64,000 bases of DNA from assembly GCA_051362555.1 (NCBI GenBank), contig CM120643.1:21952848-22016847 (forward strand). The letters are read 5' to 3'. A program made the position numbers and the translations under genes. Under the pieces are notes generated by a model. The model had not been told where the DNA came from. It did not search any database and was given only the letters and a program-made list of their open reading frames with translations. The DNA is from Lingula anatina. Lineage: Eukaryota > Animalia > Brachiopoda. Of this stretch, positions 1 through 60,900 are shown piece after piece (the first letter of the stretch is position 1; every line of letters begins with the position of its first letter).

Positions 1-625
1 ATTTTTGAAACACACGCTGTACAATAGACTCCGTTCAGACATAAAGTGTGAAAGTGCAATGCCCTATAGATGCATAGATGGTCATTTATATATTCTGAGA
101 ATGTCATTATGTATCAATTTCTCTTATTTTGAATGACAAAATAATGATTTTATTCATTATAATATCCAACTTTAAATGGTGTTTTAGCAATTAGAATTGC
201 TACTTCTACATGTATCATAGACAGTTATGTCATGACTAGATAAGTTCACCCTGAAACCTCTATAAGGTAGACAATCGCATCAAACTGCCATGGGAAATGT
301 GTCATCTTCAGCAAAATGATCGATTTTTTTGTATAGGTACACATTTATATTGAAATCTTTTGTTCAAGATGGATGTAGCTTTCTTCAGCTGGCATTTAAC
401 AACGAAATATTCCAAAAATGTAGACAAGCATGAGTAATAGTCATAAATCTACATGCAAAACTGCCAGTGCTACACTACAAGTGGTACACTGCACATGCAT
501 TAGGGTGTGAGATGTTGCATTTTAAATACATGTACGCGATAGACAATTACATATCTGAAAATGAATGAATGAAAATGATATTTTAGCAGTGTGCCACTTT
601 ATTGTTTTTGTTTTATTATAACTTT

Positions 626-907: not shown

Positions 908-3900
908 TTATCTCCCGGGGACGATATGCCTGTCCCTAGGCATATTTAAAATTAAAATATACATTAATTAAAATAAACTTTCTTAAACACTGCATTTGTC
1001 TTTTACCATAAATTCATGCAAAACAAAACTAAGTACATAGATTTTGTATTATAAACCTACGATAAGATAGAAATGCATTTGACATGAAACCCAAAATATA
1101 ACTCAAAGGAAGATAGATTGACAACTCTTCAGAAAATATGGTTGTTCGTGGATGTGCATTTACATGTTGTCATGTGTGGCCCAAGAGTACAGATATTTTT
1201 ATTTGTTTTCTCCGCGCAGATGTTTAAATCTGTTACTCTCTTATTATGGCTCTGACACATTTTATTATATAGTTTCTCTCTTTTGTTTGCCATATGGGAT
1301 GTTCTTGGGATGCACTACGTGAGACAATTGGGTTAGCTACTCCCTGCCGAAGAAACAGCATTCACCACACAACGTTGCGACCAGCGCATCGTTGATGACG
1401 AAGTACCTGTTCAACTTCATATTTATCCACACAGTAGCGCTCTCTTTTGATGACTATAAGAGAAACAACCGTTTTATATCAAACCCAATCCACGATTAAA
1501 CAAAAAACATACCGAAAAATAATTAAGTAAGAATCTTCCTTAATGCATATCAACAGTTTCACGTCATCATCTTTATAAAAGTTAAGTACACTGTTCCTAT
1601 ACCAATAACTGTATAGTTAAATATCAATAACTAATAACTATAAGACCGAAAAACTGAATATAGATATACTTTTCCTAAGTCGCGTGTTTAATATTCAATA
1701 CACAATATTTAACATTTTCTTATAACCACATGCAATAACATATAACTCAAAGTTAACCAATAAAATCTCAAGTTCATTTCCCACAAATGAAAAGTTCCAT
1801 TTGGTATGGTCCGTTACATCCTCCATTTTTGAATTTTAGCACGAAAGTTCAGTTAGCATATAATGTCAAATCCGTCCTTCTAGACAGTGCATAGCGATTG
1901 TCATCTGCCACTCATTGTATATGGATAAACGTCTTATTCGCGCACGTGTAGATAAATGTTCACAGTTTCCTGTATATCCACGAATGTCCATGTCCAGCGT
2001 TTACGAATATATCCAAAATGAATGAAGCAGAAATGCATGTCAAGAAAAACTTAACTACATATATTATAACAATCATCATCAAACTTGAATACATTCACAT
2101 TTAACAGGCAAGATTTTAACATGCCATAGTATTATTCATCCAAAAGATTATGATACCAATAAAACATATATGGAACCATGCTAATAATACAATAATATGT
2201 CTAATAATAATAATACTTATGCTAATAATAAAAATAATAATAACGCAATCTGGCGTCCCAGATGCTAGTATTTATATGACGTCATGCGCACACTTTTATA
2301 CCTCAACTCCAAATATTCAGTTATCCATAACCACATTGATATCCGTCACATCTTAATAATTTTATTCATCACAATATATCAAATAATATCCAAATATGGC
2401 CATTTATCCTTGCATCATTTATTCTCATTAACTTATTCGTTTCACTCGATCTTTTGATTGCCAATATAACCACATTATCAACTGACAAGATCATTTAAAG
2501 AAGATCATTGAAATGCCAGTGATTAGGACTTTAATTAAGGCAATTTGTCGAGAAACTATTCTCCAATTTTATTCTTCGCAACCCGAAAACATAATTTTAT
2601 TGAAGGGACTTCCAATAAGGTAGATTAATCATAATCTTAATATTTGCTTGTCACCTTCAAAGGTGCATGTGCACTTTCGACGATGTTTGACATTGCAAGG
2701 GGGTAGTGGGCGAAACAGAAGGGGTATTCTTATGAAAAGAATTATGATTCATCATCTGAAATTACGCAGACTGTAAGTCCAGGAGCCCTAAACCGAAACA
2801 AAGTGCAATAATAATTAGTATTGCCTGAAATTAAGGTGAATGCCATTTAGGTGTCATATCCTGTAAAAGAAAATTAAAAACTCGTTATGATGGATATTAA
2901 AATTACAAGGGTAGACGAAAAACGAAAAATTCATTTGCTGCCTCGATAACCTGGAAAAAAAACTATTTTATCAATATTGATTAGTGCAACATTATGGTTC
3001 AAGTCAACAACAAATTATTTCCAAATGCAGTTTTCCGTCTTGTCACGAATTTTTAACAGTGAAGTGAGATACCTCAGCTGTTGGAATCTCTTCAAACATT
3101 CCGCAACCTGTATAAATTCTTAAGGTCAATAGATGCATAAAATGTAAACGGAAATTAATTTACTCAATAAACATAAGACGTATCAAAAGATGGATAATGT
3201 TTACATTTATCTAAATTAGCAGGTATCGGAAAATATAAGACATACAAAATATATTCACCAAACAAATTTTACGTGTTGTTTTATAACAAGTCTACAACCA
3301 ATTCGAATTATTTCTTTAATCAATACTCACACTTACTTACGTGAATCTTTTTCGGAATCTGAGGGAAAATGAGGGACAACCATATCGCCGTTGAACTCCT
3401 AATAGTATTGTCCTAGAAAACACTTAGCGTACATGTTTAAAAACAAACGTCAAAGGCATTGAAATTTAAGAGCATCTTTTAATAATTTCCATAAAAAATA
3501 TTAATGACATTACTTTAAGATAGTCTCTTTACAAATATCTTAATTCTATCCAATTAGAATTCAACTTCTTCACGTTTGCTACTCCCATCTTACTGTCTGT
3601 TTTAAACAGGCGTGTTCTATTTCATTGACACACGACTTAGTATATTTTCTTCCTTTCCTTTACTCTTATGTTATTCACTTTAATGTCGCCTCGTTTAATT
3701 TTTAATTGGATCCCTAATATTCTAACCAAAAGGGAATCCATTTCCACTAAATAAGATACTGTGCTTCAACTTTTTATCTGACGCGACCTCGTAAGGCTTC
3801 TACTTTAAATAATTCATCAGTGGTCTGGGACAAATTTGCTTGTCCTGCAGTCTCATTTCCTCGTTTTTCTTCATTTTTTTATTTTTTCTTACTCTCTTTG

Positions 3901-5011
3901 TTTATGGGCAAAGTTAGCAACGAACCCTGGAGTTATTTTGGAGGAACTTTCCTTGTCAAACATTCAACACAAGAACGAACATAATGACATCTGTAAATGA
4001 CCTTTTCCAAAAAATACTTCGTGTGCGTAATGGTAACTACGTGTTCTAAATAACCTTATGACCGATTGCATTGTCGTGTAAACTAGACAAAACTTTGTAC
4101 TCTAACTTGTCTGAAAAACAAGTTGCAAAGAACCTCCTGGGTGGGGTGATTTTCTGCCATCAATTATCACGTTATCTCCTATCTCTAACAACAAGAAGCC
4201 GAGCGACTTTGCAACTAAGTAGAAGTTCGTCTAATGTCAAGTATGTGATAATTGACGCAAAATTCTTATCTTTACGCTGGAGTTTTTAAAACAATTGCTC
4301 TTTAAAACAAATGCCTCGCAATCTTGACATTTTGACAACGTCATATTTTTGTCACCTTTCTCTAACTGTTAAAAGCATTCCAGACCTTGAAATTCATAGC
4401 CACTCTGTTTTAATTTAAAGTAAAGTACTTGTGTCTAACATATGTATTCTGTTCAAACATGCATCATTAAAAAAACTGTGCAGGGTCATTATGCTTTTCT
4501 AAGTCTTATTCTTCAACGTTTCCCTCATGGTAAGGGCGGCGGCTAATCGCGTCTACATTCGCGAGGTGTTTACCTTTACTCTGCTTAATTGAAATCTGTT
4601 AGGGGATAAATTCAATAACCAATAATTCACTACTTCTAGAAATTCGATTACATTCAAATGGGCATGGAATTTTGGCACTGCCTTACACTTTGTCAACGCG
4701 AATATCAGTTACTGAAACTATATACCCTTAATACCTGACCTCTTCTCGCGCAATGAAACTATTCAGATAATGCTAAGTTTGCATTACTCAGCCTTCGTAA
4801 AACTATGTTTACCTCACTAAGGCAATATTTGAAATTGTGGCTGGCTACCATAAATTCATCTATATATCGCAAAAAGCATTTTCTAAAATAATCGTTTAAA
4901 GCAATTGTCTTGTGTTCGCCTGCTTATTTTTGTCCGGTGATCGTTCTCTCTCTTTCCGACAAGACTCATGATGTCAAACATCTATGTTTATATTTTGCAT
5001 CCTCCACCATT

Positions 5012-20601: not shown

Positions 20602-23600
20602 ATGGGAGAATTCGTGCGAACGACTGACGGTACAGGTAAATTGTGTTTTATAGAGATAATCTGTCAGTATATAGAGCATCTTAAGTAACTGCAAAGCCGG
20701 TTGTAGGTCGTGGGTCGTGTCTGCCGCGCTTTTAATCCTCTGATTGTTGTTTGCTCTGGTCTACGGTCGTTCACCTAACCCAGGTACAGATGTCCAAAAC
20801 TGTACGCTCATATATTAGGTGAGTTATATATTAAGTATGTGTGTGTGGGTTTGTGTGTGTTTGCCTATGTGAGAGAGAGAGAGAGGGGAAAGAGAGTGGC
20901 TCGTTTGAATGTGTGAGGTCGTGTTATGAAGATAAGTCAACAACATTTGATTATATTCATTATTTTGTGTTCACTAGTATCTCATCAAAAGGCATGTGTT
21001 CTAAATTTTAGGCTACCAGTATACAGATAACTTTATCGTTACTGACGAAGTGAAAGAGCAGTTTGACAGGGACGGTTTCATTATATTGCGGTAAGGCAAT
21101 AAATACTTTCAAACCCGTACACTCTTGTTTACAAACTTCACTAGATTCCCTGTGTTAGCTAAGGCCAGCATCAGGGGTTACAGGTTAAAGTGAAATACCT
21201 ATCGAGTAGGGGGCGCCGGAAGAGCTTATAGAGGATATAAGCATCGAAACTCACGACAGAAAATTTTAATTGGATTTTAATTGGATTTTAATTTTAAGCT
21301 GAAGCACGTTTGACAATACACAAACGGTATTTTAAAAAGTGTGGATTTCACAGTTCGAATTGCATGTTTATAAGCCTATTCCCCTACCTAAATACTGTAC
21401 TTTGATAAGCGAAATAATAAGTGGATATCTTAATATTTAAGCTCTGCTGTCCATTTTTTACCGCTTCGTTTGCCAAATATGATGCCGTTTCAATTGAACG
21501 GTGGTTGTGCTATAGTCGACCCTTCTTATAATTTTTATTTCTAGAAAGTTTTTGGACGCCGAGGAGGTCACCAACTTGAGAACGGCCCTGGAGCAAGACA
21601 GAGCTCTAGAAGACTATCACTATGCTCGAGACGACGGCCAAGGCCGCCAAACAAAAACAGTCAACTGGAGTCACCCTGGAGATGATATCACTGGTATGAT
21701 TGGAAGGAGTGAGAAAGCTGCTGGTACCATGGAAAAGGTATATCGGTCCTTTGTTGACTGTCATTAATATTTATTTTTCTTTCCTGTAAAAGGTATGATT
21801 TGGTTTTGCGAATCCCTGTAAGTCTGATTTATTATTTACAAAACTTATATTTAAGCAAAATTCATGAGTAAAGGGCCATATTAAAACTAGACTGGATTCA
21901 GTAAAAGTCCCTGTCATTTAAGGTCCTGACACTAACTTAATAAAAATAGGTGCTATATATCAAGCTTATAAACAATTACCTTTGTCTCTGCGGTAGGCAA
22001 TCTAGCAAAGTGTGTTTAATGTTAGACTCCTTATTCCAGCTTTTAGGGGGAGAAGTATATCAATATCACGCCAAAGTCGTTATGAAAGAACCATTCACAG
22101 GGGGTGCGTTTATATGGCACCAGGATTACGGGTAAAATATCCTATCTAACCATTTTTTTTATTCTTGAAGTTGTCAAAGTATATGAAGTATGTTAAACAA
22201 CCCAAAGTCCATTTACATATTACAAGGAAGTTTATAGCTGGTTGTTCACATTTTAAAATCTGTCTGACCTATGACTTTTTTTTTTTTTTTGAGGAAAAGC
22301 TGTTGAGTCAATAATTTAGGTTCCATTTGGTATAGAGTACCAGTAAAATGTCATATCATTACAAAAGATGAGTATTGCGAAAAGACTTTTGAAGTTCGGT
22401 GATATCTATTTTCCAGTTATTGGTACCTGAACGGCAACCTGTTTCCAGACATGGGCACAGTGTGGATTGCAGTGGACGGGGCAGACAAGACAAATGGATG
22501 TCTACAGGTAATGAAACACGTGCTATAAATAGATATAGCCAACATCCATAAAATACCTGGAGGTGGGTATTGGTGCTTATGATCATTTCTGTACAATATG
22601 TATAGAGAGCAAGCAAAATACATGTACTGGTACATGGAACATTGATGGTGTCTGTGCAGTCCATAAAAAAAAACCTGTTTTCACTTGCATTTTGTAGAAA
22701 ACATTGTTGCATTTTCATTTCTTGAACATATTTAGAGGACACGACCAGTTTCTCTTTTTTGTGTAAAGAAGCTGTATTTTGATGTCCACTAACCAAAGGC
22801 AAGTAGGAAAAATACATTGTCAACCCATTTCTACCAGTTGACCATGTGTCCACCATCGTAGCCTATACATTGAAAAGACTTATCGTCGCAATTTCCCATG
22901 CATTCAGATACTGCCAGGCTCCCATCGAGCTGGACGAATAGACCACGTTAAAGTCGGTGACCAAGCAGGGGCTGACCCGGAACGCGTAGAGCTCCTGGCC
23001 AAACTCTGCCCCTTGACATACGTCCAGCTTGACCCTGGAGACGCTCTGTTTTTCCACTGCAACCTACTCCATCGAAGTGACCAGAATCACAGCCAGAACC
23101 GCCGTTGGGCTTACCTTGTCTGCTATAACCGTGCATCCAATGACCCAGTGTATAAACATCACCATCCTAACTACACGCCCCTGATTAAGGTGGGCATTAT
23201 TCTGTCAATTATTCTTATAGTTATACAGGGGCGGAATTAGGCGGTTTTCTGGGTCTTCCGGAAGACGGTCAAATTCCTAAGTTTACATAGATGAGTACCT
23301 CTTTTTTCTGTAGGAAGACGGTCAAAAAATGGAGGATGTATCAACAAAGATAATTTGTAAGACTGTCAGAAAATATCTCTGGATCCGCCCCTGTTATAGT
23401 ATTTTTCTCGCAATTATTTATTTTGCGAAATACTGCACATTATTTCAGGATGAAGATAGCTGTATAGACCCTTAATTGCATCTATTTTACTATCATTCAT
23501 TAAGCATTCGTGCGCATAAATGTATACATTTGCATACATTTGTATGACGAATCATCTATTTTACTTAAACTGGCAATAACGGAATCATTTTGGGCGATTT

Positions 23601-28961: not shown

Positions 28962-31900
28962 TCACTGACTTCTGAGCTGCTGCTGTCCATCATCTGCCTC
29001 ATCAAAGACGTTATAATCGTGCATGTGAGGGTGAAAATCGAGAGGCGAACCCTGCGATCGACATAATTCTTCCAAAGTCTTGATATTCTGGTCTGTTAGT
29101 CGAAGATATCGGCAGTTCAGAGCGTCTTTGGCAGTGAACGGAATCGTGTTTAATTCCCTCTCTTCCGACATCATTTTCGGAAGATGTGCCGCCAACATTT
29201 GCAATATTTCCATTCTATGTTTGTCATGCTGTTGGCTACTGAGAGAATGACCGGAAGTCTGTGGAAGGATCGCCTCCAACTTTTCTCTATTCATTGCGAG
29301 AAACGTTAATGAAATTAATGAAATCGGAAAAGAAGCAAGAGAATCCTAATGGTCTTTCTTCTAATCATTTTATCTTAGATTATGTGTCCTGGTAGTATGT
29401 ACCTATCCTAGCACCAAAAGCGATATAAACGTATCATAAGTACACATACTTGCATTTATAATTAGCATATACAAAGTTTACACAAGCTTACATTTAATGG
29501 CATACTTACCGAAGTTTTCTGTTTTTCGGATCGTTCAACATGCGACAAAAATCCGTCATCTCTTCATCGGTTACAAGACGCTTCTTGTTTCGGCTATCAA
29601 CGCGTTCTTTTTTATGCGGACTTTTAACGTTACTTGATGGTGTTCGAGCATTTTTTGTACTATCTGGTACTGTTATATGTATGTCCTAAAATATATAAAA
29701 TAAGCTGTTCTCTACTTGTTTTCCTTTAAATAAAAATGCTAAAGTTGTATTAGAACGGCGAAGGAAATTGGTGGGTCAAAATTGGAACCCATTTCCCAAT
29801 TTGTAAGAGACATGGTCTTGCTGTATCTATTCACTTTCTTGAGAAACCTGGCTTAGATTCAATGTGGGAAAATGTTTTTAATGTGGGAAAATGCCTCACA
29901 AGCCCACAAAACATTTCAAAACGGTGATCATACTCTGAAGTTACGAAAAAGGGCAAAGCGTCTGTGCATGCGTTTGTAATTGTGCACACACTGGACAAAA
30001 GAAGTGTCACCCCCTAACTCAGAGTAATAAAAGTAGGCAGATCTTGGGTATTTATAATGCCTGGTCTACTTATAATGTGACTAATGAGTATAAAACCGCT
30101 ATACCATTGAATTGTATTGTTGGTCTTGTACATGTACAGCAAATGTTATTCCTGTCTTCCTCCAATATGGCAAGATACAGGCAATTATCTAACGGTTATA
30201 GGTGCAAGTTGTTAACCTGAAGAGGCGGAATATAAGCAATGTCAGAATATCGATACAATTGAATTGTTCAGTCAGAACCGTGCAGAGGGTCTGGTCTCGG
30301 TATAGAAACACTGGATCAAGAGACAAATTGCCTCTGATGGGTCGTCCAAGAAAAAATACTGGCCGTGAAGACCGACGACTGATTTTGATGTCCAGGTTGT
30401 CAAAGTTCGACACTGCTTGTCAGTTGACAACACAGTGGAACAATTTCACACATAAGAATGTGTATGTGAAAATTGCTAGGCGTCGGTTACATGCTCAGAG
30501 AGTGTACAGCAGGGTAGCAAGACTGAAACCTCTTATATCGTTACAAAACAGGCAACGTAGAGTAAACTAGGGTCAACAGGATCTGGAACTGGACAGTTCA
30601 TGACAATTGGTCCTATATATTTTTCTGATGAGTGTCGCTTTGGTCTGACCTCTGATGACAGACGGGTACTATGCTGGCAAACTGATGGTAAAGCATTTGA
30701 ACCACATGCACTGAATTTTCGAACCCGGAGCAGCATATTCATCATGATGTGGGGCTGCATCAGCATCCATGGCTTGGGCGAATTGATAGTGGTTAATGGA
30801 AACATGAATCACTAGAAATATATCGATGTTTTGGAGTCAGGCTTGCTACCATCTATTACTGACATGTTTGGTGACAGGAATTATCCATTTGTTCACCAGG
30901 ATGACAATGCTCTTTGTCACAGGCCCAGAGCAGTTGATGATTGGTTTGACCAACAGGACATTCGCAGGATGATGTGGCCTGCCCAGAGTCCGGATGCAAA
31001 CATAATAGAAAATGTGTGGAATGATATGTCAAAACTTTTGACAAATGCCCGTCTAACCAGCAGAGAAACTCTGTTATATTCAGTGTTTCATGCTTGGGCC
31101 AGCATAAGCCCTGAACGCATCAGACAATTATATGAAACCTTGCTTCGTAGACTGGCACCTATTATTAGGTCACGTGGTTATGCCACTAAGTACTAATTTT
31201 GGACTTGAAACTGCATATTTTGGTAGAATGTATATTTTGTTCTCATTTTGTGATTTTTTGTGAAATTTGATGTTAATAAAATGATACCAGGAGCATATCA
31301 TTCCGAAGTCATTTATCTCCTCCATAGTATTAATTGGCTCAGTAGGGGTGACACTTCTTTTGTCCAGTGTGTGTACATTTTGAGTACCCACCTATCCAAC
31401 TTATTAATTGATTTCCCATGAAGAGTAAAAACCACATATTGTTTATTGATTTGTGTGGTAGCAAAATTCGTAGAAGGGATTCCTACCTTAATGTCCATGC
31501 TGTCTGTTGAATTCTGGTCCATATTGTTGAACTCACTGCTCGTTACAGCAATTAGATCTATTGAGTGTGAAGAATCTTCCTCGTTTTTGTGGGGTTTGTT
31601 TTTTACGACATACTTTTGAAAACTTGCCCGTCCACCAGCAATGGCGTCCCTGGAACCAATGGACAGTCGGCTTCCGGTCAGCTGATCAGCGGGTTTGTCA
31701 GTCTTAGGAACCTTGACGTAAACAAGACGACCTAGGCTGTCCCGCACCAGCTGTTCTTTCACGTGCCTGCTGTGGTAACGAACTAAGTTCCCTTGGCTGT
31801 CCCGCAGCAGTTGCCCCTTACTATCCCGTATTAAGCGGCCCTCACTTTCTCGCAAGAGGCTTTCGTTACTGCCTTGCACCAGTTGAGATTTGCTTTCAAA

Positions 31901-33928
31901 GTGAAGCCGTTTCTTGCTACCTCGGCGCAGGTTCTCCTGGCTACTTCTCTTTTTTGATGGCTGTCGTATACCCCTTGGTGTGGTGTTTATCGAGTCCTGC
32001 TGGTTCCTTTTGTAATTGGTTCGATTTTTGCCTTTTTTACGGTCTTTGCCTCCGATTTGGGGGAGAGTGGTCGAGCTGTCTTTCTGCTCTCGTGGGTGAG
32101 CCCAGGACCCTCGCCTTGCCTCTGCTGCTGCCTCTACTTTCAGTTTATAGGTACTGTCTGTAGGTAAAAGACAGTACATATATGGCAGATGTGATATCAG
32201 GAAATATCGCCATGTAACACATTTATTTGCTATTATTTTTTTACAACATTTTCAGGAGAGCTTCGTTTCACATCGCTCAGTGAAGAAAGACGTATGGAAG
32301 TTAATAGATATTTCGATAGTGATTATATTGTCCCTGATTCCGTTTTATTTGTTATCTAACTTTGCTAGCAAACTGATTTTAACTCTGCGTGTGTGTGTGT
32401 GTGTGTAAGTGGGTGGGTGGAAGCCTTCCGAAGGGTGTGCACGCGCGCGTGCGCTTGTTTTTGTATTTTAAAATACTGTGCATTTTCGAATAACAAATCC
32501 ATAATCCGTAATCAAATGGCTAGACGTATTAAAATGAAACCTATAGTTTTATAAAAGCTAAAAGGGGAACTGGGATACATACTATCTGAAGGTGGGGGAT
32601 GATGGGAGTGGCGTCTGTCAAATGTCCCCACTCTGCCAGTGTTCAGGTGGGTGACATCGTGCTTGCTTGCTCCTGGGATGTCCTCGCAATACTCCGCCAT
32701 TAAGGAGCGCATGCTTCTTCCTGGGGAGAAAATTAGAAATTAGAACATTTGGAACTGAGAGAGAGACCTAACGAAACGATTTACAGAAACAGTTCATGAG
32801 CTTGCTGTCGTCTTTCTTCTTGCATGTTTTGGAAAATAACCAATGTACCAGAGCTCGTATGAAGTAAAGGAATTTATAATATTCGTTTCTTCAAAAAAAG
32901 CCAAATCACATTTATCTGCACCCAAGCAGATCGGGTTGAAGAAACTACTACTTATTTTCATTTTGACAAAAGTGTCAGCTAATGAAATTAATGCTTTGCT
33001 GAGAAAAAATTGCAAAATTGGTGAAGACCAAAGGGAAATTCACTGAAATGTTTCTATGGCTTAAAGTAACATAAGCATACAATTACCTTGTTTCTTCTCA
33101 TAATCAAAAAGTTTTGACTTCACATTCTTGAACCTGTCGGTCTCGCTGTGCGTACTACCCGCGAGGGAGAAGCCATGGCAATCTTCCATTCCAACTTGAA
33201 GGTGGATGGGAACGTTACCCAGGTAACTAGAGATAAATCACATCTTACTTTCTCCACGAGGAAGGGCATAGCACGTTATTATTTAAAGCCAGTGTGTTGG
33301 ATGATTCTTGCAGTTATTTTATCAATTTAGAAATAAATAATATTTTGGACTTAATAGTATATATAGGCTTTTTAAAACTCGAGGACAACTTTTTGTAGAA
33401 TCTTATAATGTATGGCTACAGTAAGGCCTCGATCAATAATCACTGTACCGGGTTACACATCTTCTTAAGTTTTTTTAACACTTCTGTCTCTCTGACATGA
33501 TGTCAAGCTTTGTTTGTTAATTAACGTTATAAGTCACAGTCTAAGTCATTTTAAAAAGTTATCTTCTTTAGGTATGTGATTTCTCTAACGCCGAAACACA
33601 CCGCCCCTGAACATTTTGGTCAAAATCTGTTATAATTCCCTAGTAGCCTACTATTCTAAAAATCTGTAGATTTACCCTTAAATACCGTTGATATGAAGTA
33701 CACCTGTTTTGAATACGACTGTGGGAGAACTTACCTTGCAGAAGCAGCTTCAATCCTGTTTTCTTCGGCTAAAAGTTTAGTGACTTCGAGCACATTTAGC
33801 TTGGTTTCTTTTGAGAGCCTCCTGTATTTCTGAAAACACCAAGATTCGCCCTTTTTTTTCACAAAAATGATAGGAAGCAATTGAGTTAAAGAGTACAGGT
33901 AGTTTATGAATAGTGTATGAATCGATTG

Positions 33929-33977
<49 letters not shown>

Positions 33978-36900
33978 AACCTTTAAATTTCTTTCATCCT
34001 GTTTGTCTTTGTGGGATTGCAGTTGTGCTTGAAGCTTGTCGTAGCGGCTCATCATTTTTTCTTCTTCTTTTCTGAAATGAAAAAAAAAACTATTTCTTAA
34101 TTATTTTCATCGGTTTCAATGAATTAAAGGGGCAAGTAGTTGTCTTTCACGATGGTGTTGGGCGCATTGAGATTTTTATGGAAAACACCATAAAAGTTCA
34201 ATCATTTTTTTTTTTCAAATACATTTACGACAGCTGTCAAGCTAGATTTATTTATATGGTGCATAAAGAAAATGAAAATGTAGTTTCAATAATAAAGGCG
34301 ACTCTACCCCACTGCTTTGCAACATAAGCGCAGGTCAGTTTAAGCTCTTGGTAGTGGATTTTCATAAACTGGTTAATTTTATGATCACCTATAATGCAAC
34401 CAAAACAATTTGAAGTTTTCAGAAACAATGGTTCTCTTATTTTATATCAAGATGTTTTTTCTATCCACATGCCCGCCTAAATTGTCACGATAATGAATGC
34501 CTTAGAATGTACCTATATCTACTGCTATTTTATTATACTATGAAATCTATTAAAGATGTGATGTTGCCATACACAGCCACTGTCTTAAAAACGCCCTGTT
34601 ATTATAAAAAGTCCCGTAAAAGAAAACGGAGTAGGGAGTTTGAGGGAGAATATTGTAAGCGTTGTAGGCGTGTAGGCGTGAAGAGGAGGTCGAAAGGTCG
34701 CACGAAGAATTTTATTTTTTTTTACTGCTGGGTTCCACTGGGTTTGCACTGTAAACGTGTGCTCTATAGTTTTCTCTGTGCTTTGTGTCGTATTTAATGC
34801 CATTCATGCTCATCTATCCTTGTTTTATTCATTCCAATTTACAGCTACCCGGTTTACTTTTTGCTGTAATGCTTACTGTATCGCTAGCGAACCATTGATA
34901 TTTATGATAAAACGACTCGGACTGCAGACATTTCTTTACCCTTTACTGTTCTATTGAATTTAAGTCTTACATGAGCCGTTTATCGGTCACATGCACTCCC
35001 ATACTGTTGTCGTTACTGTTGCCATTGCTGTTTTATAATGAAATACAATTTCGCTTTATACAGACAGGCTACATATGCAATAGGAACTGAACGACAGCAG
35101 TACAGTGCTACATGTACAGTAGGCACTGTACGACAACAGTACGGGATTTATTTTCATTTTCTGCTATAAAACAGGGATTATCACTTCCTCAACGAGTATT
35201 AATTTACTTTTTAAGTATTTATTTGGATAATGAGCAGAACGCACTTATTAAACTACCATTAACCTAACGTTAACGTCAACGTGTGCTGATATGGGGATTT
35301 TTTCATCTGAAAGCAAATCAACACACCATCACGTGGTAACACCGACATCAATACAGTACAACAATAGCCTATTGATTCGAACTGCTGAATCAACATTCTT
35401 ATATTCAGATTACTCGCACCACTACGGCCGCCAGCTGTGTTGTGTACAGTTTATATAGTGGTAGTGCATCTTGCATAGTAAGGTCCGGAGGCAGAGGGTT
35501 ATCGAAATCTTACGAACCCATCCTCTGCAGTAATTTGACCTTCTGTTTTATTTTTACATGTTTATTGCAATTTGGGGTAAGCTTATTCTTAATTCGTACT
35601 TAACAATTTTTGTTTTGTGAACGATATTTTCGAGAAAGTTATTAGATGGATGACTGCATGCCAAGCTAAATTTACTTATATGGAAATGAAAATGTAGTTT
35701 AAATAATAATGGCGACCCACCCCTCCTCTTTGCAACATAGGCGCAGGTCAGTTTAATCTCTCGGTAAAGGACATAGCTGGATTTTCATGAACTGGTTAAT
35801 TTTATGATCACCTATAATGCAACCAAAATAACTTTAAGATTTCACAAGATTTCACACACAATGGTTCTCTTATTTTATATCAAGATGTTTTTTCTATCCA
35901 CATGTCCGCCTAAATTGTCGCGATAATGAATGCCTAAGAACGTAACTGCATCTACTGTAATTGCTGACTCAGCATTCTTGTATTCAGCTTGCTCGCACCA
36001 CTACGGCCGCCAGCTGTGTTGTGTACAGTTTATATAGTGGTAGTACACCGTACATAGCGAGGTCCGGAGGTAGAGGGTTATCGATATCTTTCGTTCCTAT
36101 CCTCTGCCACTCGCCCAAGGCAGTGATTTGACCTTCTGTTTTATTTTTTTTTACATGTTTATTCCAATTTGGGGTAAGGTTATTCTTCGTGCTACAATTT
36201 TTTTTGTTTTGTGAAAGATATTTTCGAGAAAGTCATTAGATGGATGACTGCCTACATTTTAATGCAGCATTGTCTTTTATTGTCTGCTTATATGTGACAA
36301 TTAACACGTTGATTTGCAATGCCTGAAGGGCAGTTGGTACCGCTGACCCGTTTATTGATACCCAAAATCTTCCCACTGCACTAGACTGACCTCGGCTTTT
36401 AAGGAAAAATACCGTTTTATTTTGGGAGAAAGCCCCTAGACGGCATGGGGAGGGGTAGCACTATAAGTAGGCATATTTATGACAATTACCATTATAAGCT
36501 TAAGATAAGAACAACAATATATTTTTGATAATAATAATTATAATAATAATAAATCAATATATAAATAAATTTATCAATGGGATCACGTTACTTTTGGAAA
36601 AATTAGGGGAGACCGGGGCTAGTTGGACCCCGGGGTAAGTTGACCCCCTTCCATCAAGTCTCTTAATTTAATAAAGTTACTTTAAGATGCTAAATTATTT
36701 CATTTGGACTCACTGCCGACGCTTACTTAGCACTATTGGATATGGTCACTTTACAAAATGATGTGACCAATTCTTTTACCCCCGGGGTCCAACTAGCCTC
36801 GGTCTCCCCAACATAGAGTTATCTAATAAATAACTCTGTGTTTTTAAATAAACAAGTGTGCACCACCAAAAGATTGACCGACAGCTTCTTCTCTGGCAGA

Positions 36901-38099
36901 AATCATTTTTATGTAAAATGTGGATTTCTCCTTAATGAGGACCAGGCATTCTTATATACCGGTTGGGCCTAGAGTTGATCGATTGAAACAGCTGAGTCAG
37001 CATATATGCTAATTTTCTGTACCACTCTAACCGCTAACTCAGGTGTGTGTTGTTTATATAGTAGAGGTCTCACAGGTGAAAGTTGTAAGGTCCGAATGCG
37101 GTGGGTTATCGAGCTCTTGTTTAATAATTCCCCACCGCAGTGTTTAGACCTTCCATTTTTCGAAAAATGTCAGTTGAAATTGGACTGTGTGCGACCGGTT
37201 AATAGAACTAAACTCATATTGTGCCAAGGGTGGCCATATAAAAGATACTGTGCCGACATACTGTCACACGTATTAAGAAATTAGCTGAGGTGTACACTAC
37301 GTGGCTTTTATAAAAACCTAAATCGGAGCATCTGTCTCGAAAAACTTTTTTTTAATATTAAAAATATTATTGAAATACGTTACTTCTCAGTTGTTCATAA
37401 AGTGATACGACGACCGAGCTTACGACCGAGCTTCACCACGTTTTGGTTATGTATTTATGAGTCTTTATATATCAATTGGACTTATTGGTCGACTTTTATA
37501 TTTCTCACATTATAATTTTTCAAGTTGCAGAAATTAAGAATGATTACCAAAACAGGGTCAATGCGTGGGATTGTGAAGAATGACCCACGTCATTGGAGCC
37601 CTTGTATGTCGCACAAAGCTGACAAGCATATATAACTTACATTTGACATCAGGCGGCGATAGTGGTGCGGAGTATTTGTAAATATTATATGGAGCGAATT
37701 TAGGCCCTCTTATGGGTCTTCCTGAAGAGGGTAAGATTTTCAAGTTTACATTGAAGGGTATCTAATTTTTTCTGTCGGAAGCCGGTCAAAAATGGAGGAT
37801 GGATAAACAAAGATAATTTGGAAGACTGTCAGAAAATATCTCTGGATCCGCCCCTGATTAATATAAAGCAAGCTATTTATAGAAGGGGAATTCCCTACCC
37901 TGAATAACAGGTGACGTTTTACAAGGCTACAATAGACCCCTATTAATTCTCAAAGTAGTAGTTAACAAATGTGCGTAAGTGTCTACCTATCAAAGTGTTG
38001 GCACGATATTTACTTAATTTTTTTACGATAATCTATCAATTTATGATTTAAATAACTTCCACAAATTAATAGTGTGTTAATATTTTACACACACATAAG

Positions 38100-38130
<31 letters not shown>

Positions 38131-38863
38131 TTGATGGCAAGCCATGTACAAGTTTCTTTATTACTAGAAGGCTACTGATATAATTTTCATGTTGGTTTTT
38201 GAAGTGTTCGTCTCTTAACGCTGAAAACTAAACGATTAATAGAAAGAATGAAAAAGTAATTCAAAACGCCCACAAACCTCTTGTCTGCAACGTCATAAGG
38301 GAATTTCTGTAGAAAATAATACCATTAAAATATAATCATGCTGAACATATCAAAATGTTTAAACCCCATAAGAATGAAATAAGGGTTACATGTCGATACG
38401 TCCCCTCACCGATACTTCCCCGCACTGATACTCCCCCGCACCGGTACATCCCCGCACCAATACTTCCCCGCACCGACACTCCCCCACAATTACAGATATA
38501 CTGAGGGGGAGTATTGGTGCGGGGAAGTATCGGTGCGGGGAAGTATCGGTGCAGGGGAGTATCGACATGGCCCCAAAATAAGAAGAAAGAGATTTACTAC
38601 ATGCATCTTTAGATAAAAATTCAATTTTAAATAATAAAGACTCGATTAAAATGAACAAAATATGCAGAAAATATATACTGTACTGACCTGAATTTCTGTT
38701 CCTGCTCCCCTTTTAAGTTATCAATGATATTGGACACTTTGTAGTAGTGTTTTCTTTCTCTCTGGTTGCCGACATGAGCGACAGTGTCTATAGAAGACCG
38801 GTCCAATGGAATTAAATTCATCACCAATTTTCCAGTTGGCTTGAGTAATTTACGAATTGGCAT
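28962..38863 (-). CDS. Uncharacterised protein with C16orf78/DUF4638-like C-terminus; 8 coding exons
   Basis: Minus-strand exons ~38863-38688, 34071-33981, 33829-33735, 33226-33087, 32720-32583, 32157-31487, 29685-29510, 29286-28962 join in frame with GT-AG sites. C-terminal ALNCRYLRLTDQNIKTLEELC...DFHPHM resembles the CRYLRLS..NI.TL..LC...D.HPHM motif recalled from vertebrate C16orf78 (from memory, not searched). Confidence 0.7.
29985..31373 (+). mobile_element. Tc1-like (DD34E) transposon, decayed, intronic
   Basis: ~28-bp TIRs CACACACTGGACAAAAGAAGTGTCACCCC. TA on the right, TG on the left (mutated TSD). Transposase from ~30167 to 31196 broken by frameshifts and stops, with GRPRK, FSDECRF, QDDNALCH and SPDANIIENVW; D-to-E spacing is 34. 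Confidence 0.92.
35477..35549 (+). ncRNA. Y RNA / stem-bulge RNA-like gene A (putative Pol III)
   Basis: AGTAAGGTCCGGAGGCAGAGGGTTATC...CCTCTGCAGTAATTTGACCTTCTGTTTT. GGUCCG/UUGACC lower stem with bulged C, upper stem GCAGAGG/CCTCTGC, UUAUC loop motif, T-run terminator, TTTATATA at about -27. Confidence 0.75.
36056..36142 (+). ncRNA. Y RNA / stem-bulge RNA-like gene B (putative Pol III)
   Basis: AGCGAGGTCCGGAGGTAGAGGGTTATC...CCTCTGCC[extra small hairpin]ATTTGACCTTCTGTTTT. TATA at 36029-36036. Confidence 0.75.
36606..36809. mobile_element. MITE (Tc1/mariner-pogo-like ends)
   Basis: ~30-bp TIR GGGGAGACCGGGGCTAGTTGGACCCCGGGG / CCCCGGGGTCCAACTAGCCTCGGTCTCCCC; TA on the left flank. Confidence 0.75.
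37081..37160 (+). ncRNA. Y RNA / stem-bulge RNA-like gene C (putative Pol III)
   Basis: ...GTAAGGTCCGAATGCGGTGGGTTATC...CCCACCGCAGTGTTTAGACCTTCCATTTTT. Upper stem TGCGGTGGG/CCCACCGCA covaries with A and B. TATA at 37053-37060; T5 terminator. Confidence 0.8.
38389..38569. repeat. Foldback element built from ~16-bp tandem units
   Basis: CATGTCGATAC + (CCGATACTTCCCCGCA)-like units, mirrored by (TGCGGGGAAGTATCGG) units + GTATCGACATG. Confidence 0.8.
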
Positions 38864-42700: not shown

Positions 42701-44815
42701 TTCAAAACATTGCTATTTGATGCCAACTTGAGACATAAATAGGTTAAGTTGTAAAGATAGTACATGTAAGTGACACCCGTGGATCATCTGAGAATAATCA
42801 AGAATATGATCATAGAGCCGTCAGCCTCCTTCGATATTTTGAAAAAAAAAAAAAAAACATCGCGAAAAGTCTTATCAAGTTCCGATTTTTTTCCCTAAGA
42901 ACTGATAGCTGTTATAACCACCGTATGATATATGCATTTATTTTCTGCCTTTTTGTATGGAGATGTTAACAACATACGGAATCCAGGCCGACAGCGTGCT
43001 CTCTCCGCAGCACATCCAGGCACCTTGCGCATTCATGTCTAGCTTCAATGACACCACGGTCATCATCCTGGTGGCAGTCATCCTGGCCATGTTCAGCTCG
43101 AGACTTCGGTGGAGGAAACTAAAAGTGGACTTGTTTTCAAGAATGGGTAATGATATTTTTGGCTTCCATAGCGACACCAGTAAACACCAGTGCTGATAGC
43201 CTACCCCATGTAGGGGCGGCTCCAGAGATATTTTCTGACAGTCTTCCAAATTATCTTTGTTGATCCATGACGACATAATGGTTAATTCGATGTTCATGAT
43301 AGTGATAGTGTAAGATAATTTAATTGATATAATATATCAATGCCATATAACTCCATGTTTGGCACCGCATATTAGGAATTTAAAAATCAAAACAAACAAC
43401 TTTGGCTTATCTGGCATGTTGTCAAACGACATATACACTGTACGTGACTTTTATAGTATCCGATCTTTAGTTCCAAGATTTTATTATTATTATTTATTCA
43501 GGTATTGGTTTGGTGTGTGCTGTATTATCAGCCTTTGTTGCCATTGTCCTGGAGTTCGAGAGAAAGAAGGACTGCAAAGCAAATCATGGAGTTTCTTCGT
43601 TATCGGTTTTTGTTCTCATTCCCCAGTACGCACTGATAGGATTGGGAGAAATATTGACATTGGTATCAGGTATGAAAATAAAGTAGAGAGAGACAGAGAC
43701 ATCCAAATGACTGTGCGTTAAACTCACTTAAGTTAGTACCAGCCCATTATAAAATAATAGCTTACACCTTTGAATATTTCAAATTCTAGCTCTTTTTGAA
43801 GACTTTAGCTATTAGTATCTATAGAATTGATAACTTCATGAAAACGTATGATATATGTACTTCACAGAAAATCGTTTCAGTAGTATGTTGAAAATATTTT
43901 AATGTCCAAATTATTACCTCTAATTCAGGAATGCAATTGGCGTACCTGGGCGCCCCTAAAGGACTTCGGTGCACGTCGCTGGGGCTTCTGAAAACTGCTT
44001 TAGGTCTGGGGGATTTCACTGCGTATGGTGTGCTTGAACTGCTAGAGCGCTTTAATCCAGGTAGATATCTTGAAAACTGTCCTCACAAGGTATTTCAATC
44101 GTCCTTGTACAAGCCCGTCTTAAAAAAAAACACTGGTGTTTCTGACGTTGTGGATAAAAAGAGTCGCTGGTATAAACACCTTGACTTGGTGCGTGAAGCG
44201 AGAATGCTTTGTTAATCCTAATAGCATAATTGAATTTGATGTTGAGTAGGCAGATATGTATTTCGACTTTTCCCAAAACTTTCAATGAATGACCTTGCAT
44301 TAAGCCTTTACAATGATATCACTTATAAAGGAATCGGTATGTTAAGTAGGGTTTTAAGGTACTAAAAATATGGCATAAACGTTTCTTTTAAAATCCTTAA
44401 TATATAATCCGAGAAGAGTGCCCGACGGTTTTCATTTTACAAAGCAATGCTTAAAGTACAACCACTTCCATCTGAACAATAGAAAGAAGGCTATATTCAG
44501 TCACACCTATAAGTGCACATCTAGCTCAATGTTATATAATCGGTTTCAATTTTGTTCCCTCTAGATTGGTATGACCATCACGACAGATGCATGAGCCTGA
44601 ACTTGGGCCGCACTGACGACTACTTGCTGTTTTTAGTGGGTCTCCTAGTGGGTTGCTTTATTTTCTTTCTCATCGTGGCCCGGTACGTCAGCACAAGCGA
44701 TCGTATTAGTTCAAGGACACGCCGAAATACGACGACGTTACTGGGAGTGACGTCACAAAGAACTACATCAAAACTCTCTGTAAATAATTCAAATGTTAAT
44801 AAAGAGAAAGACTGA
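39751..44815 (+). CDS. SLC15/POT (PTR2) family transporter, SLC15A4-like, gene 1
   Basis: Exons ~39751-40033, 40164-40262, 40677-40714, 41534-41674, ~42026-42206, 42390-42589, 42963-43147, 43502-43669, 43929-44060, 44564-44815. Motifs GGIMADVF, LYLSRNCGAF, IIYSQ..TTYGIQA, LIPQYALIGLGE, LAYLGAP; N-terminal EKTPLL. Some boundaries approximate. Confidence 0.8.
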
Positions 44816-46223: not shown

Positions 46224-47612
46224 AGGCCTACTGTGCTCTAGGAACACAGAGCGTTCACTGCTTTTTTTACAGTATAAAAACTATAAATCGACGTCAAAAA
46301 ATTGTTCTTTTTAAGTTTTAGAGAGAAAAGATGAGATTTAGATGAGAAAATTCTGATTGGTCAGTTTCTAGTGACGTAACCTGGGTAGTAGCTTCCCACA
46401 GCTGTACTAGTAATAGTATATACTATGCAGTAGGTGACTAAACATCCAGGTGTCAGAAAAACAAAATGCCGCAAAGTTGTGTTGCTCCCGGGTGCCGTAA
46501 TGTAGGTTACGATAAGAAAGACATCTGCTATTATATCCTGCCTGCGGATGCCGCAAAATGTAAAATTTGGCTCAATTCTCTGAAGTTAAAAAATCCCAGC
46601 ACAGTGTCAAAACACGCGAGGATCTGTAGCGACCACTTCGAGCCGGAATGCTTCGTACGTGACCTGCGAGCTGAATTGTGCGGTGGAAAAGCACGGAGAA
46701 AACTAAAAGATGATGCTGTACCCAGTATATTCGATTTTTCGGAGTACCAAAATGCGACAGTAAATGCCAGAGCGCTGCCGACGAGAGTCTTAGGCCTACC
46801 TGTAGGATGTGTGCATGATGCGGCGTCGAAAGGAAGAAGAGAGCAGCTTCTAGAGCCCCAAAAAAGTTCGTAGCAGAGGTACGTTGTCGAATTTTTTGGT
46901 TATGTTAGTGAAAACTTTAATATTAACATGATAGTGGAATCACATTTTTACTCGACATACTGCTGCACTGATCACGTGTAAGGCGGAAGTAGCGAGGTAA
47001 GTTGCAGAGGTGTGAAATGTAGTGTCCAATGCTATCAGTCCGATATCTTTGGCCTTTTGTCCACTGACCTGGCTCTCCCGGAATGACACTGGTAAACTGC
47101 ACGGGTGTGAAAAATAATGTTAGCTGTCACACCTGCATGTATTAGGTAACTTTCTCTTATCAGTCGGGATAAGAACATTCAGCTGACGCGACAGATGGGC
47201 ATGTGTGAAAAACTACGTTCGCTGCCCTGCTTCCAAACCTTTACTGTTAACATAGTTTTGGTGTATTTTGTTGGTTAATAAATGATAACCACGTAGGGAA
47301 TTCATCTTCTTTTGTGTATCTATCCTTCAATTCGTTCTCTGTTCATTTTTACAAAATAGTTCAGACAAAGCGATCGAGTAAATGTAAGTAAGCGGATAGC
47401 TGAATCGAATATGGCTTTCTGAGCCTCGACGCAAGTGACGTCACTCGCCTCAAAGCGCTACCACGCGGGAGTATCGTAAACTACATTCACACCTGCATAA
47501 AATCGGCTTTAAAAACTAAATAAACGTAAGAACTTTTTTTTTCATTACTCAAAAATGACTTTTGGGCACCTAATGGATAGTTTTAACCCGTTTTTTCATC
47601 ACAGTATACCTT
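46224..47612 (+). mobile_element. Kolobok-like DNA transposon, internally deleted, THAP-encoding
   Basis: TTAA flanks (46220-46223, 47613-47616), imperfect TIR AGGCCTACTGTG / CACAGTATACCT, THAP ORF inside; no DDE domain visible. Confidence 0.65.
46466..46873 (+). CDS. THAP zinc-finger ORF (transposon-derived)
   Basis: MPQSCVAPGC...LP...W...RICSDHFEPECF...LKDDAVPSIF: C2CH signature, conserved P/W/F and AVPTIF-like box. Confidence 0.85.
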   Translation: MPQSCVAPGCRNVGYDKKDICYYILPADAAKCKIWLNSLKLKNPSTVSKHARICSDHFEPECFVRDLRAELCGGKARRKLKDDAVPSIFDFSEYQNATVNARALPTRVLGLPVGCVHDAASKGRREQLLEPQKSS

Positions 47613-57940: not shown

Positions 57941-60900
57941 ATGGCCTCGCTCACCACAGGTAAAGACAACACCAAAGTGGCAACAAAACAGCGTCCCGCT
58001 GTTTATATTCGTAGATCACGCGCTGACGACCCCGAGTATGGGTTCCCGGACGAATTCATCGAATTGTGTGAAGAACATTTTGACGTTTTATATGCGAAAA
58101 ACATAACCGGTAACCCTGAGCTGGGAAAGAGGGTCGTCGGGGCCTATAACCGAGGTCCTAGTATGCCGATTACAATTGACGAGTTGTGGAAGTTTCCCAA
58201 CTTGAAAATTGTTGTTTGCAGTGGCATTGGCTGGGATCATATTGATGTCCGAGGATTGAATGCACACGGTATTAAAGTGGCAAACAACCCTGGGGTCTCC
58301 AGTAGCGCGGTAGCTGACTTTGGGATAACTCTGATGTTGGCGTCTGCTCGTAGGCTGTTGGAAGGTATGGCGATAAAAAGAGAAACGATGTTCTCAAAGC
58401 CTAACGTGACATAACGCTAGTACCGTTATCAGTAAGTTAGTGGACAGGACACAAGATGTCTGGTTAGGGCCTTACTGAAAGTACATGTATACATATTATG
58501 CATGTACAGAAACATCTGGTCTACTTGGTAAATGTGTTTTGATGTGTGTATTCATTAATTATTCATTAATATGGACAAGTTAATGATGTTTGGTTTCTCC
58601 ATTATGACCTTGTTGGTGTAACATATTCACTTCCGCTTTTTTTATTTTATTTTATTTTTTTGCTACTGTGTTTTGTATAGAAAAGAGCTGAAAGTTGTGA
58701 CGACCACAATCGCGCGGTGACTGCAAAACACTTACATTTATGACATGAACAATTGTATTTATATTGTATTTATATTCCTCCATCCCAGTGCATCACAAAC
58801 TTGCATATTCCCGTTCATAGCAAAAGAGAATGCAACAAAGACTATCGGGTGTTCGTGATTTGGCCAAACAAGGCCGCTTTTATTAAATAAACTCACTATC
58901 CTAATAATTTTAACAATAATAACAATGTGGCAAATTGTTGCCTGCATTAAATGTTATGGCCTTAGGGATAAAAATTAAATATGAAATATTTAATTTTCGT
59001 TTGTGGGGTTGCAAAGAGGCCCCCACCATGTTTTGTGTCTTTACATTTCCGACCTGTTTCACAGGTTGAGTGGCATACTTTTTCATGCCTTATTTTTGTA
59101 ACAATTTTGTCCGCCTCGCTACGTCGAGGTGAGTGGCACGTTTTGTGTCTTTATATTCTGCTCCGCCTCGTCGGAGTGAGCGGCATGTTTTGTGCCTGTT
59201 CTATTCTGCTCTGCTTCGTCGGTTTAAGTGGTAAGTATGTGTATACGGTAAGTGGTAAGTATGCATATATATATATATACTCCCGATCTCAACATCAGTT
59301 TGAGTGTTTATGTTCCAGCCCTCTGCGATTTCCTCTGTGGGGTCTTCCTTGCCCAGTGCGCTTGGGCACCAGTCAAGGTTATGGCCTCTTTGCAACCCCA
59401 CAAACGAAATTTGTGCAAAATTGCTTGAAAATGATAACTTTTGCTGACTTGTCTCATCATTATTTTTAGGATGATGAGTCTTAGTTAATATTTCATATTT
59501 AATTTTTATCCCTAAGGCCATAACATTTAATGCAGGCAACAATTTGCCACATTGTTATTATTGTTAAAATTATTAGGATAGTGAGTTTATTTAATAAAAG
59601 CGGCCTTGTTTGGCCAAATCACGAACACCCGATAGTCTTTGTTGCATTCTCTTTTGCTATGAACGGGAATATGCAAGTTTGTGATGCACTGGGATGGAGG
59701 AGACATAAAGGAAAGTTTGGCGTAGTCAAACGATATTTTATGGCGACAACAATCTCCAGAGCTTATTTACGCACATGCGCATTCTGCACATGCGCAATTC
59801 TACTAGAGGGGTGGTCCCAATTGAGGCACATGTTGCTACTTATACCAGGGGACGTCACTGCCTGACCCATTTTGCGCTCATTCTGTTGTCGCGCACGATA
59901 CGTTGAAGCTACAAGTTATCTCCGACTTTCAACTTAAACCTTCAGTTCAAAAACTGTACTATTCTTGCAATATCCATGTAACATGATCTTGTTTAGTAGA
60001 AGGAAAAAGCTAATAACTATGTGTACTTATCAGTTGTAGTGCCCTAAGCATAAGTGAACCCCAAAATTCAAGATGTGTGAAGGGTGGGGGTTTATAAGAC
60101 AATCGAGATCAGAAGACTTATAAACGGAGTCGTAAATGTGCAACTCAAAGATAATTAATAAATAGTAGGTATAAACGGTAACTTCAGTGATAACTAAAAA
60201 ATTGAATAGGTGATACGCAAGGAGCCTTATAGTGCAGTCGCCGTGACCATTATTAGAGCAAACCAGAAAGTCACGAACAAATGGATTATGTCAACGGCAT
60301 CTGATAAATCAGTAGAGAAAATAACTTACCGCCTTCATGTAGCCTAATAGTCGGCAGATGTACTACGTACAGTGTACATGTACAGCTACTCCCTGCTTGA
60401 ACTTGTACATAATCTTTCGCTGATATAATATGCTGTAAACGTGTTGTAACGGTTCGAAATATCGATGAACTGCTGGAAAGGTCTCATCGAAGGAAAAGCC
60501 GATGAAATTTTTTGAACTGAAGGTTTAAGTTGAAAGTCGGAGATAACTTGTAGCTTCAACGTATCGTGCGCGACAACAGAATGAGCGCAAAATGGGTCAG
60601 GCAGTGACGTCCCCTGGTATAAGTAGCAACATGTGCCTCAATTGGGACCACCCCTCTAGGTAGAATTGCGCATGTGCAGAATGCGCATGTGCGTAAATAA
60701 GCTCTGGAGATTGTTGTCGCCATAAAATATCGTTTGACTACGCCAAACTTTCCTTTAAAACAAATGTATCGAACAAGTAACTAACAAGCTGAATTTATCT
60801 CTTTTTGATAATGTATCCCGAATCCTCATATGGTAAAGTTACTGGGTATAGTTGCCTCCTTTGCTAGAGAGGGGTTACCTCTATATGTACAGGTAACTCA

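Follow-up and report, generated by a model that had tools for sequence, protein, structure and literature searches.

The window analysed here is a stretch of 64,000 nucleotides from the brachiopod Lingula anatina (assembly GCA_051362555.1, contig CM120643.1, positions 21,952,848 to 22,016,847 of the forward strand), and positions are counted from its first letter. It contains three short co-oriented units, A, B and C, which we describe as candidate genes of the Y RNA / stem-bulge RNA (sbRNA) family, each preceded by a predicted promoter for RNA polymerase III (Pol III). Y RNAs are small RNAs whose partner in humans is Ro60, a protein of RNA quality control.

35383..35459, plus strand: predicted type 3 Pol III promoter of A, with a distal imperfect palindrome at 35383-35395, CACCACT at 35417 (-61) and TATA at 35450.
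35478..35549, plus strand: Y RNA-like gene A, about 72 nt, with lower stem GGUC/GACC, C9 at 35486, GGUCCGG, central GAG-CUC, UUAUC at 35499-35503 and T4 at 35546-35549.
35962..36038, plus strand: predicted promoter of B, with distal TGCTGACTCAGCA at 35962-35974, CACCACT at 35996 (-61) and TATA at 36029.
36057..36142, plus strand: Y RNA-like gene B, about 86 nt, a duplicate of A, with C9 at 36065, UUAUC at 36078-36082 and T4 at 36139-36142.
36990..37062, plus strand: predicted promoter of C, with distal GCTGAGTCAGCA at 36991, TACCACT at 37020 (-65) and TATA at 37053.
37085..37160, plus strand: Y RNA-like gene C, about 76 nt, with GGUCCGA, C9 at 37093, GUG-CAC, UUAUC at 37106-37110 and T5 at 37156-37160.

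The initial annotation had pointed out three co-oriented units with a common set of motifs, all of which are in place and align. GGTCCG starts at 35482 in A, 36061 in B and 37089 in C. The 3' side closes with TTGACC in A and B and with TAGACC in C, where an A replaces the U immediately 5' of GACC, opposite C9. A run of four (A, B) or five (C) Ts begins five bases past GACC in every unit, so that the feature of a U tail and Pol III terminator is present. The pentamer UUA(U/C)C, a motif defined for the family (PMC4450293), sits at the 5' edge of the loop in all three. B carries a 14-nt hairpin-forming insertion at about 36108-36121 within its 3' bulge. The extents first proposed need adjusting: the units hold up, but their starts are likely shifted to the G four bases before GGUCC (35478, 36057 and 37085), which we set as +1 by analogy because this numbering gives the bulged C the position 9 that it has in human Y RNAs (PMC11277228). 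The start of C could instead lie at 37081.

In the predicted folds, each of A, B and C forms a lower stem from its two ends, with a probability of 0.75-1.0 for the C8-G pair, and C9 is left unpaired with a probability of 0.88 (A), 0.83 (B) and 0.96 (C). On the opposite strand, where Ro-binding Y RNAs of the vertebrate type have a three-base bulge, A and C show a bulge of 5-7 nt and B a hairpin. The upper stem forms eight of its nine pairs in A and all nine in B and C, and the compensatory change between A and C that had been noted earlier is confirmed at two pairs (A-U to G-C at position 16 and A-U to U-A at position 18); B has an extra change of C-G to a U-G wobble. The fold z-scores are -2.46 (A), -2.17 (B) and -5.73 (C), with 5, 7 and 0 of 200 shuffles as good. 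A low-power shuffle test of the upper stem, which takes the best ungapped match anywhere and allows G-U, gave p values of 0.11 (A), 0.10 (B) and 0.04 (C), and this same test was non-significant for many Y-like loci.

The upstream motif described in the initial annotation is found before each unit: the TATA-type TTTATATAG starts at 35450, 36029 and 37053, which corresponds to -28, -28 and -32 for A, B and C. Further upstream, YACCACT lies at -61 (A), -61 (B) and -65 (C). Of the 24 Y-like units collected below, 14 have a YACCA that begins between -65 and -61, compared with a mean of 1.3% and a highest value of 13% in 53 control windows and with 0 of 11 pattern-only matches; YACCA is absent from the search pattern, the position range was set once the data had been seen, and some of the units are not independent of each other. 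We take YACCACT to be a putative proximal sequence element (PSE) from its position and from the consensus for such elements. All three units have the distal motif GCTGANTCARCA at -94, and the window holds no other occurrence of it (4 matches at 3 sites, compared with 0.05 expected, for a pattern drawn after the fact); it is not common to the other Y-like loci. The version in B, TGCTGACTCAGCA, is presumably a Maf recognition / AP-1 palindrome. The layout of PSE-like motif plus TATA box fits the type 3 promoters that Y RNA genes use (PMC10498592) and would give these elements a promoter function. Oxidative stress raises the levels of four C. elegans sbRNAs (PMC8477234), so control of the cluster by stress is a lead only.

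In a relaxed Rfam search of 3.7 kb, the top three of 10 matches were Y_RNA on C (31.9 bits, E 0.00089), the nematode sbRNA ceN72 on C (25.2 bits) and ceN72 on A (22.6 bits); Y_RNA scored 19.3 bits on A. Matches to MAT2A_F, mir-84, sn2841 and SNORD97 near the units (E 0.5-3) were set aside as chance. We also searched with a descriptor (GGTCCG, 8 free bases, GR, GTTATC, 25-55 bases, GACC, 1-9 bases, TTTT) based on A, B and C, on the Rfam consensus and on known Y RNA ends. The window contains three matches to it, and 100 dinucleotide shuffles contain none. A search of prokaryote genomes (596 Gb) gave five matches, which score at most 17.3 bits, come from genomes with a TROVE match in 0 of 5 cases and were treated as chance; viral contigs gave 0 matches. 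A bacterial YrlA-type Y RNA was likewise rejected as an identity for the units: ARAGORN finds no tRNA-like domain, the loop is short and the genome is that of an animal.

The same descriptor returned 29 metagenome loci, of which 20 fold as Y RNAs by eye and nine look like chance. The nine (L003, L005, L009, L010, L014, L019, L023, L027 and L028) have no match to model R1, which was trained on chosen loci and searched against 28 of the 29; L022 repeats L013 and was omitted. In L017, R1 also picked up a second copy that had not been used for training and that scores 44.8 bits. A second model, R2, was trained on 19 metagenome units from 17 loci, with the window excluded. R2 scores A at 51.8, C at 48.1 and B at 38.6 bits, A being highest, compared with 17.3 bits for the best of 12 pattern-only loci and 11.3 bits for the next match in the window (filters off). 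Two of the R2 training members lie above the Rfam gathering score, namely L013 (Y_RNA 38.7 and ceN72 40.6 bits; 8 loci given) and L024 (ceN72 47.3 bits; 20 loci given).

The loci come from varied sources. L001 carries a Y RNA-like gene at 4001-4088 on the minus strand, with CCACCA at -63 and of the GGUCCGG / GAG type like A and B; it is from a stony coral, as the neighbouring protein (of a serine carboxypeptidase gene) has its best named match, at 77%, in Montipora. L013 carries two co-oriented Y RNA genes (4000-4081 and 2297-2381, minus strand), one of which is the copy above the Rfam gathering score, between mannose-6-phosphate isomerase and ankyrin genes, on a compact contig of 28% GC with eukaryote-type genes, and its organism looks non-animal. 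L017 has two back-to-back Y RNA-like units (317-475, minus strand) with animal-type UUAUC loops and without TATA or PSE, on a gene-dense, prokaryote- or phage-like contig with a YdcK solenoid gene nearby. Second Y RNA-like copies lie about 0.5-0.6 kb from the first in L021 (from 4592 onward, with a long loop) and L004 (3499-3607, minus strand, 24 bits), which suggests that small Y RNA clusters are common.

The collected units also bear on the fold and on the variants seen in Lingula. In a MAFFT alignment of 23 units, 75.5% of the stem cells are paired, compared with 67.9 +/- 1.2 in shuffles, and 41 cells show double changes, compared with 24.0 +/- 3.6; values as high occur in 0 of 500 shuffles. 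Slid controls pair at 36-61%, and the model-fitted alignment is 79.2% paired with 64 double changes. The lower helix is paired in 87% of cells, and pairs 3-87 and 4-86, which are not fixed by the pattern, are paired in 22 of 23 rows with six and five pair types. The central pair of the upper stem is U-A in 13, A-U in four and C-G in two of 26 units, and position 11 is mostly G; because of this variation, A and B fall within the range seen outside vertebrates. GGUCCGG and GAG recur in L001 (coral), L004 and L012.

The top three Rfam matches, the recovery of all three units by a held-out model, the covarying stems and the PSE-like motif at a fixed position bear out the family proposed in the initial annotation. 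We consider A, B and C very probably to be genes of the Y RNA / sbRNA family, new members in a phylum for which our literature search gave no described example, and they are likely working genes.

The surroundings of the cluster contain the following further features.

34072..38687, minus strand: predicted intron 1 of a DUF4638 gene, from the computed exon chain, with the cluster inside in antisense.
38688-38863, 33981-34071, 33735-33829, 33087-33226, 32583-32720, 31487-32157, 29510-29685 and 28962-29286, minus strand: predicted exons of the DUF4638 gene.
34235..36251, unstranded: tandem duplication behind A and B, in which 34235-34524 matches 35659-35957 and 35380-35657 matches 35959-36251.
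36600..36810, unstranded: repeat between B and C that resembles a miniature inverted-repeat transposable element (MITE) and has terminal inverted repeats of 30 bp; a passenger outside the genes.

The computed eight-exon chain has GT-AG at all ends, matching phases and 603 open codons. Its last exon encodes DUF4638 (PF15472, E 7e-11), and exon 1 is reached weakly by homologues (residues 20-599, E 4e-11, 20% identity; in another, residues 20-174, E 5e-4). A homologue search with the large host exon gave no match. The cluster is thus likely located inside an intron of a brachiopod gene, as this gene model predicts. The initial annotation had placed it antisense in an intron, and the exon chain does leave 34072-38687 around it, but the intron is a predicted one, with no spliced reads; the host exons have near zero coverage in four of four mRNA-type runs, and this near-silence of the host gene accounts for the missing spliced reads. 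A broken Tc1/mariner-like DDE transposon lies at about 29985-31375 in an intron of the same gene; RNA reads on it come from other copies, many of them internally deleted.

The duplicated segment spans about 590 bases, and its flanks differ by about 8% substitutions between A and B. The 3' flank of C differs from that of A/B at 46 of 96 aligned positions. By sequence comparison, A and B are recent tandem duplicates and C is an older paralogue.

The paralogues differ in motifs with known roles in other animals. Xenopus Ro60 contacts GGUCCGA, mainly on the 5' strand (PMC4201824), and Ro60 is reported in most or all animals (PMC4726728, PMC11277228). The full contact sequence is found only in C, and A and B read GGUCCGG. 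According to a primer list, CeY, which is bound by ROP-1, begins with GGUCCGA, and the sbRNAs Ce6 and Ce7 begin with GGUCCGG (PMC8477234). C. elegans sbRNAs were reportedly not recovered in ROP-1 precipitates, and CeN72 bound ROP-1 in a gel shift (PMC4726728). GUG-CAC is linked to replication initiation, mutation of UG-CA cripples the replication activity of sbRNAs, and CeY is also described as being without UG-CA (PMC4450293). The GUG motif to which the initial annotation had referred holds for C, where GUG pairs with CAC, but A and B carry GAG-CUC together with GGUCCGG. As read from their sequence, A and B are variants outside the strict, replication-active UG-CA subgroup, and C shows every sequence feature tested except a score at the Rfam cut-off and the exact opposite bulge.

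Several points weigh against the family assignment. The Rfam check suggested in the initial annotation did place its top matches on C and A, but these lie below the gathering score of 38 bits (RF00019, RF01656), which nothing in the window reaches, and B has no match up to E 10. The G10/N11 pairs of the canonical Ro helix are weakly predicted (probability 0.00-0.20). The training set of the R2 model came from a pattern partly built on A, B and C, its members were picked by eye, and the covariation and shuffle counts are inflated by relatedness and by the choice of rows. A and B are not significantly more conserved than their flanks, either in the promoter (P 0.08) or in the stems (P 0.53), are without the UG-CA needed for sbRNA replication activity, and share their GGUCCGG with C. 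elegans sbRNAs not found with ROP-1. Finally, A, B and C drew 0 reads in eight of eight mRNA-type 150-nt libraries, of each of which 6-26% was read; expression is not refuted by this, because such libraries lose short unpolyadenylated RNAs.

Some of these points would suit a cluster in which one copy works, most likely C, and A and/or B are dispensable or silent duplicates. We regard this as possible but doubtful. The 14-nt insertion in the 3' bulge of B, the lack of GUG-CAC and GGUCCGA in both A and B, the degenerate distal element of A and the non-significant purifying signal between A and B all favour it. However, A/B and C still have all three upstream motifs (TATA, PSE-like and distal) and also two compensatory pairs in common while their 3' flanks diverged, and the A/B lineage has therefore been long constrained; GAG and GGUCCGG, moreover, are the variants that recur in the coral and two other loci, and A is the top scorer on the held-out model. 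A single working copy would be compatible with the family assignment in any case. We judge it very improbable that the units are Y RNA-derived or other copies of a short interspersed nuclear element (SINE) or MITE, or retropseudogenes, rather than genes, a reading for which the roughly 1000 Y-derived retrocopies in mammals (PMC5745555) would speak. Each unit keeps about 95 bases of external promoter, and A and B arose by tandem duplication at the DNA level, flanks included. Retrocopies lose external promoters. Only three copies are present in the window, all within 1.7 kb and each with upstream elements, and the MITE-like repeat between B and C collected 10-62 reads per run from the same libraries that gave the units none, a modest argument against a high-copy repeat.

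A further alternative concerns function: the units could be real Pol III RNAs of the family that do not bind Ro60 and depend for their action solely on the upper stem with UUAUC, as do most C. elegans sbRNAs. The absence of sbRNAs from the ROP-1 immunoprecipitates described in PMC4726728, the GGUCCGG that A and B share with Ce6 and Ce7 and the A opposite C9 in C agree with this. It is nevertheless unlikely in our view, since C carries the exact GGUCCGA contacted by Xenopus Ro60, CeN72 did bind ROP-1 in a gel shift, and A and B are without the UG-CA that the replication role requires.

Taking A, B and C as genes of the Y RNA / sbRNA family, their expression and action can be outlined by analogy. 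SNAPc and TBP would read the PSE-like motif and the TATA box, as in vertebrates and nematodes, and Pol III would start close to the G that lies four bases ahead of GGUCC and terminate in the T-run, without depending on the antisense host gene. The two ends of the RNA would then pair and expose the bulged C9 in GGUCCG(A/G). In the scheme described for vertebrate Y RNAs, the tail is bound by La and the stem with the bulged C by Ro60 (PMC4726728); in Lingula, La would similarly bind the U tail and Ro60 the lower stem to give a Ro ribonucleoprotein (RNP), which would stabilise the RNA and gate the handling of misfolded RNAs by Ro60. The upper stem with UUAUC may correspond to the module that supports the start of DNA replication in vertebrates and nematodes. 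Because it has both GGUCCGA and GUG-CAC, C would be the best candidate for both the Ro60 and the replication role. A and B have likely become divergent paralogues, with B perhaps in decay.

In reviews of 2015 and 2025, Y RNAs are listed for vertebrates, nematodes, Anopheles, Bombyx, Branchiostoma and bacteria (PMC4726728, PMC11825425), and annotation papers expected Y RNAs in Schistosoma (a flatworm) and Trichoplax (a placozoan) and did not find them. A full-text literature search turned up no description of a Y RNA or sbRNA in brachiopods, molluscs or annelids, though candidate lists may lie in supplements or databases. This agrees with the earlier view that the class is poorly documented beyond vertebrates, nematodes and a few lineages. 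The Lingula cluster would extend the Y RNA family to the brachiopod/mollusc/annelid branch and fill this gap with genes that lie under the Rfam cut-off, and the descriptor and model recover further members, including one from a coral. As the paralogues differ at precisely those two motifs that are tied to Ro60 binding and to replication initiation, they offer natural variants for asking what the ancestral function of Y RNAs was, and they raise the question of whether Y RNA-dependent replication initiation is general in animals.

A more far-reaching picture can be put forward tentatively, and with more doubt than confidence. The cluster would be the first lophotrochozoan Y RNA locus with split duties, C serving Ro60 and replication and A and B forming a GGUCCGG/GAG-CUC subclass with another role, under an oxidative-stress switch acting through the conserved Maf/AP-1-like palindrome at -94. 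The 22-nt block GGUCCG-N8-GR-GUUAUC would mark one ancient family missed by Rfam, reaching from corals and brachiopods to a non-animal-looking eukaryote with a compact genome, and perhaps to a phage or bacterium, so that Y RNAs would predate animals.

Elsewhere in the window, five tandem multi-exon genes of the phytanoyl-CoA dioxygenase (PhyH) family occupy 7100-28060 on the plus strand, with a main exon that is 76-92% alike among them. A high-copy repeat lies at 37690-37856, with further copies at 23228-23393 and 43212-43268. The plus strand has a THAP-domain open frame at 46442-46870, possibly from a P-element-like transposon, and the exon at 57938-58411 matches a protein of Lingula anatina with 94% identity. 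At 58776-60757, a 2-hydroxyacid dehydrogenase gene contains long perfect inverted repeats (215, 151 and 98 bases, 100%), which are either a fresh foldback insertion or an assembly artefact.

Among known systems, bacterial Y RNAs (YrlA/YrlB, Yrn1) share with the Lingula units a 5' Ro-contact motif related to GGUCCGA, but the Lingula units have no tRNA-like domain and no neighbouring Ro60 gene, and their promoter is of eukaryotic type. The Y/sbRNA candidates of Anopheles, Bombyx and Branchiostoma are, like A, B and C, invertebrate members found by homology (PMC4726728, PMC11825425), and are set apart in belonging to Ecdysozoa and Chordata rather than Lophotrochozoa.

Vertebrate Y RNAs (RF00019; hY1, hY3, hY4, hY5) resemble the Lingula units in the end-paired lower stem, C9 in GGUCCG, the upper stem, UUAUC at the 5' edge of the loop, the U tail, an upstream type 3-like promoter and the grouping in one local cluster, and resemble C also in GGUCCGA and GUG-CAC. 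They differ in being longer (84-112 nt, compared with 72-86 nt in Lingula) and in closing the lower stem with GACU instead of GACC. GGUCCGG and GAG-CUC in A and B, a best Rfam score of 31.9 of 38 bits, the location in a predicted intron and the distal Maf/AP-1-like palindrome further set the Lingula cluster apart. The nematode sbRNAs (RF01656 ceN72-3/ceN74-2) and CeY belong to another phylum, and the Lingula units score 22.6-25.2 bits against the sbRNA models, below 38, have the central UG-CA in C alone and have a PSE-like motif that begins with YACCA. With these nematode RNAs they share the GGUCCGGA start, a nine-pair upper stem with GC clamps, UUAUC, UUGACC, a short loop and individual promoters, as well as tandem-duplicated arrays, an arrangement in which nematode sbRNAs are described (PMC5745555).

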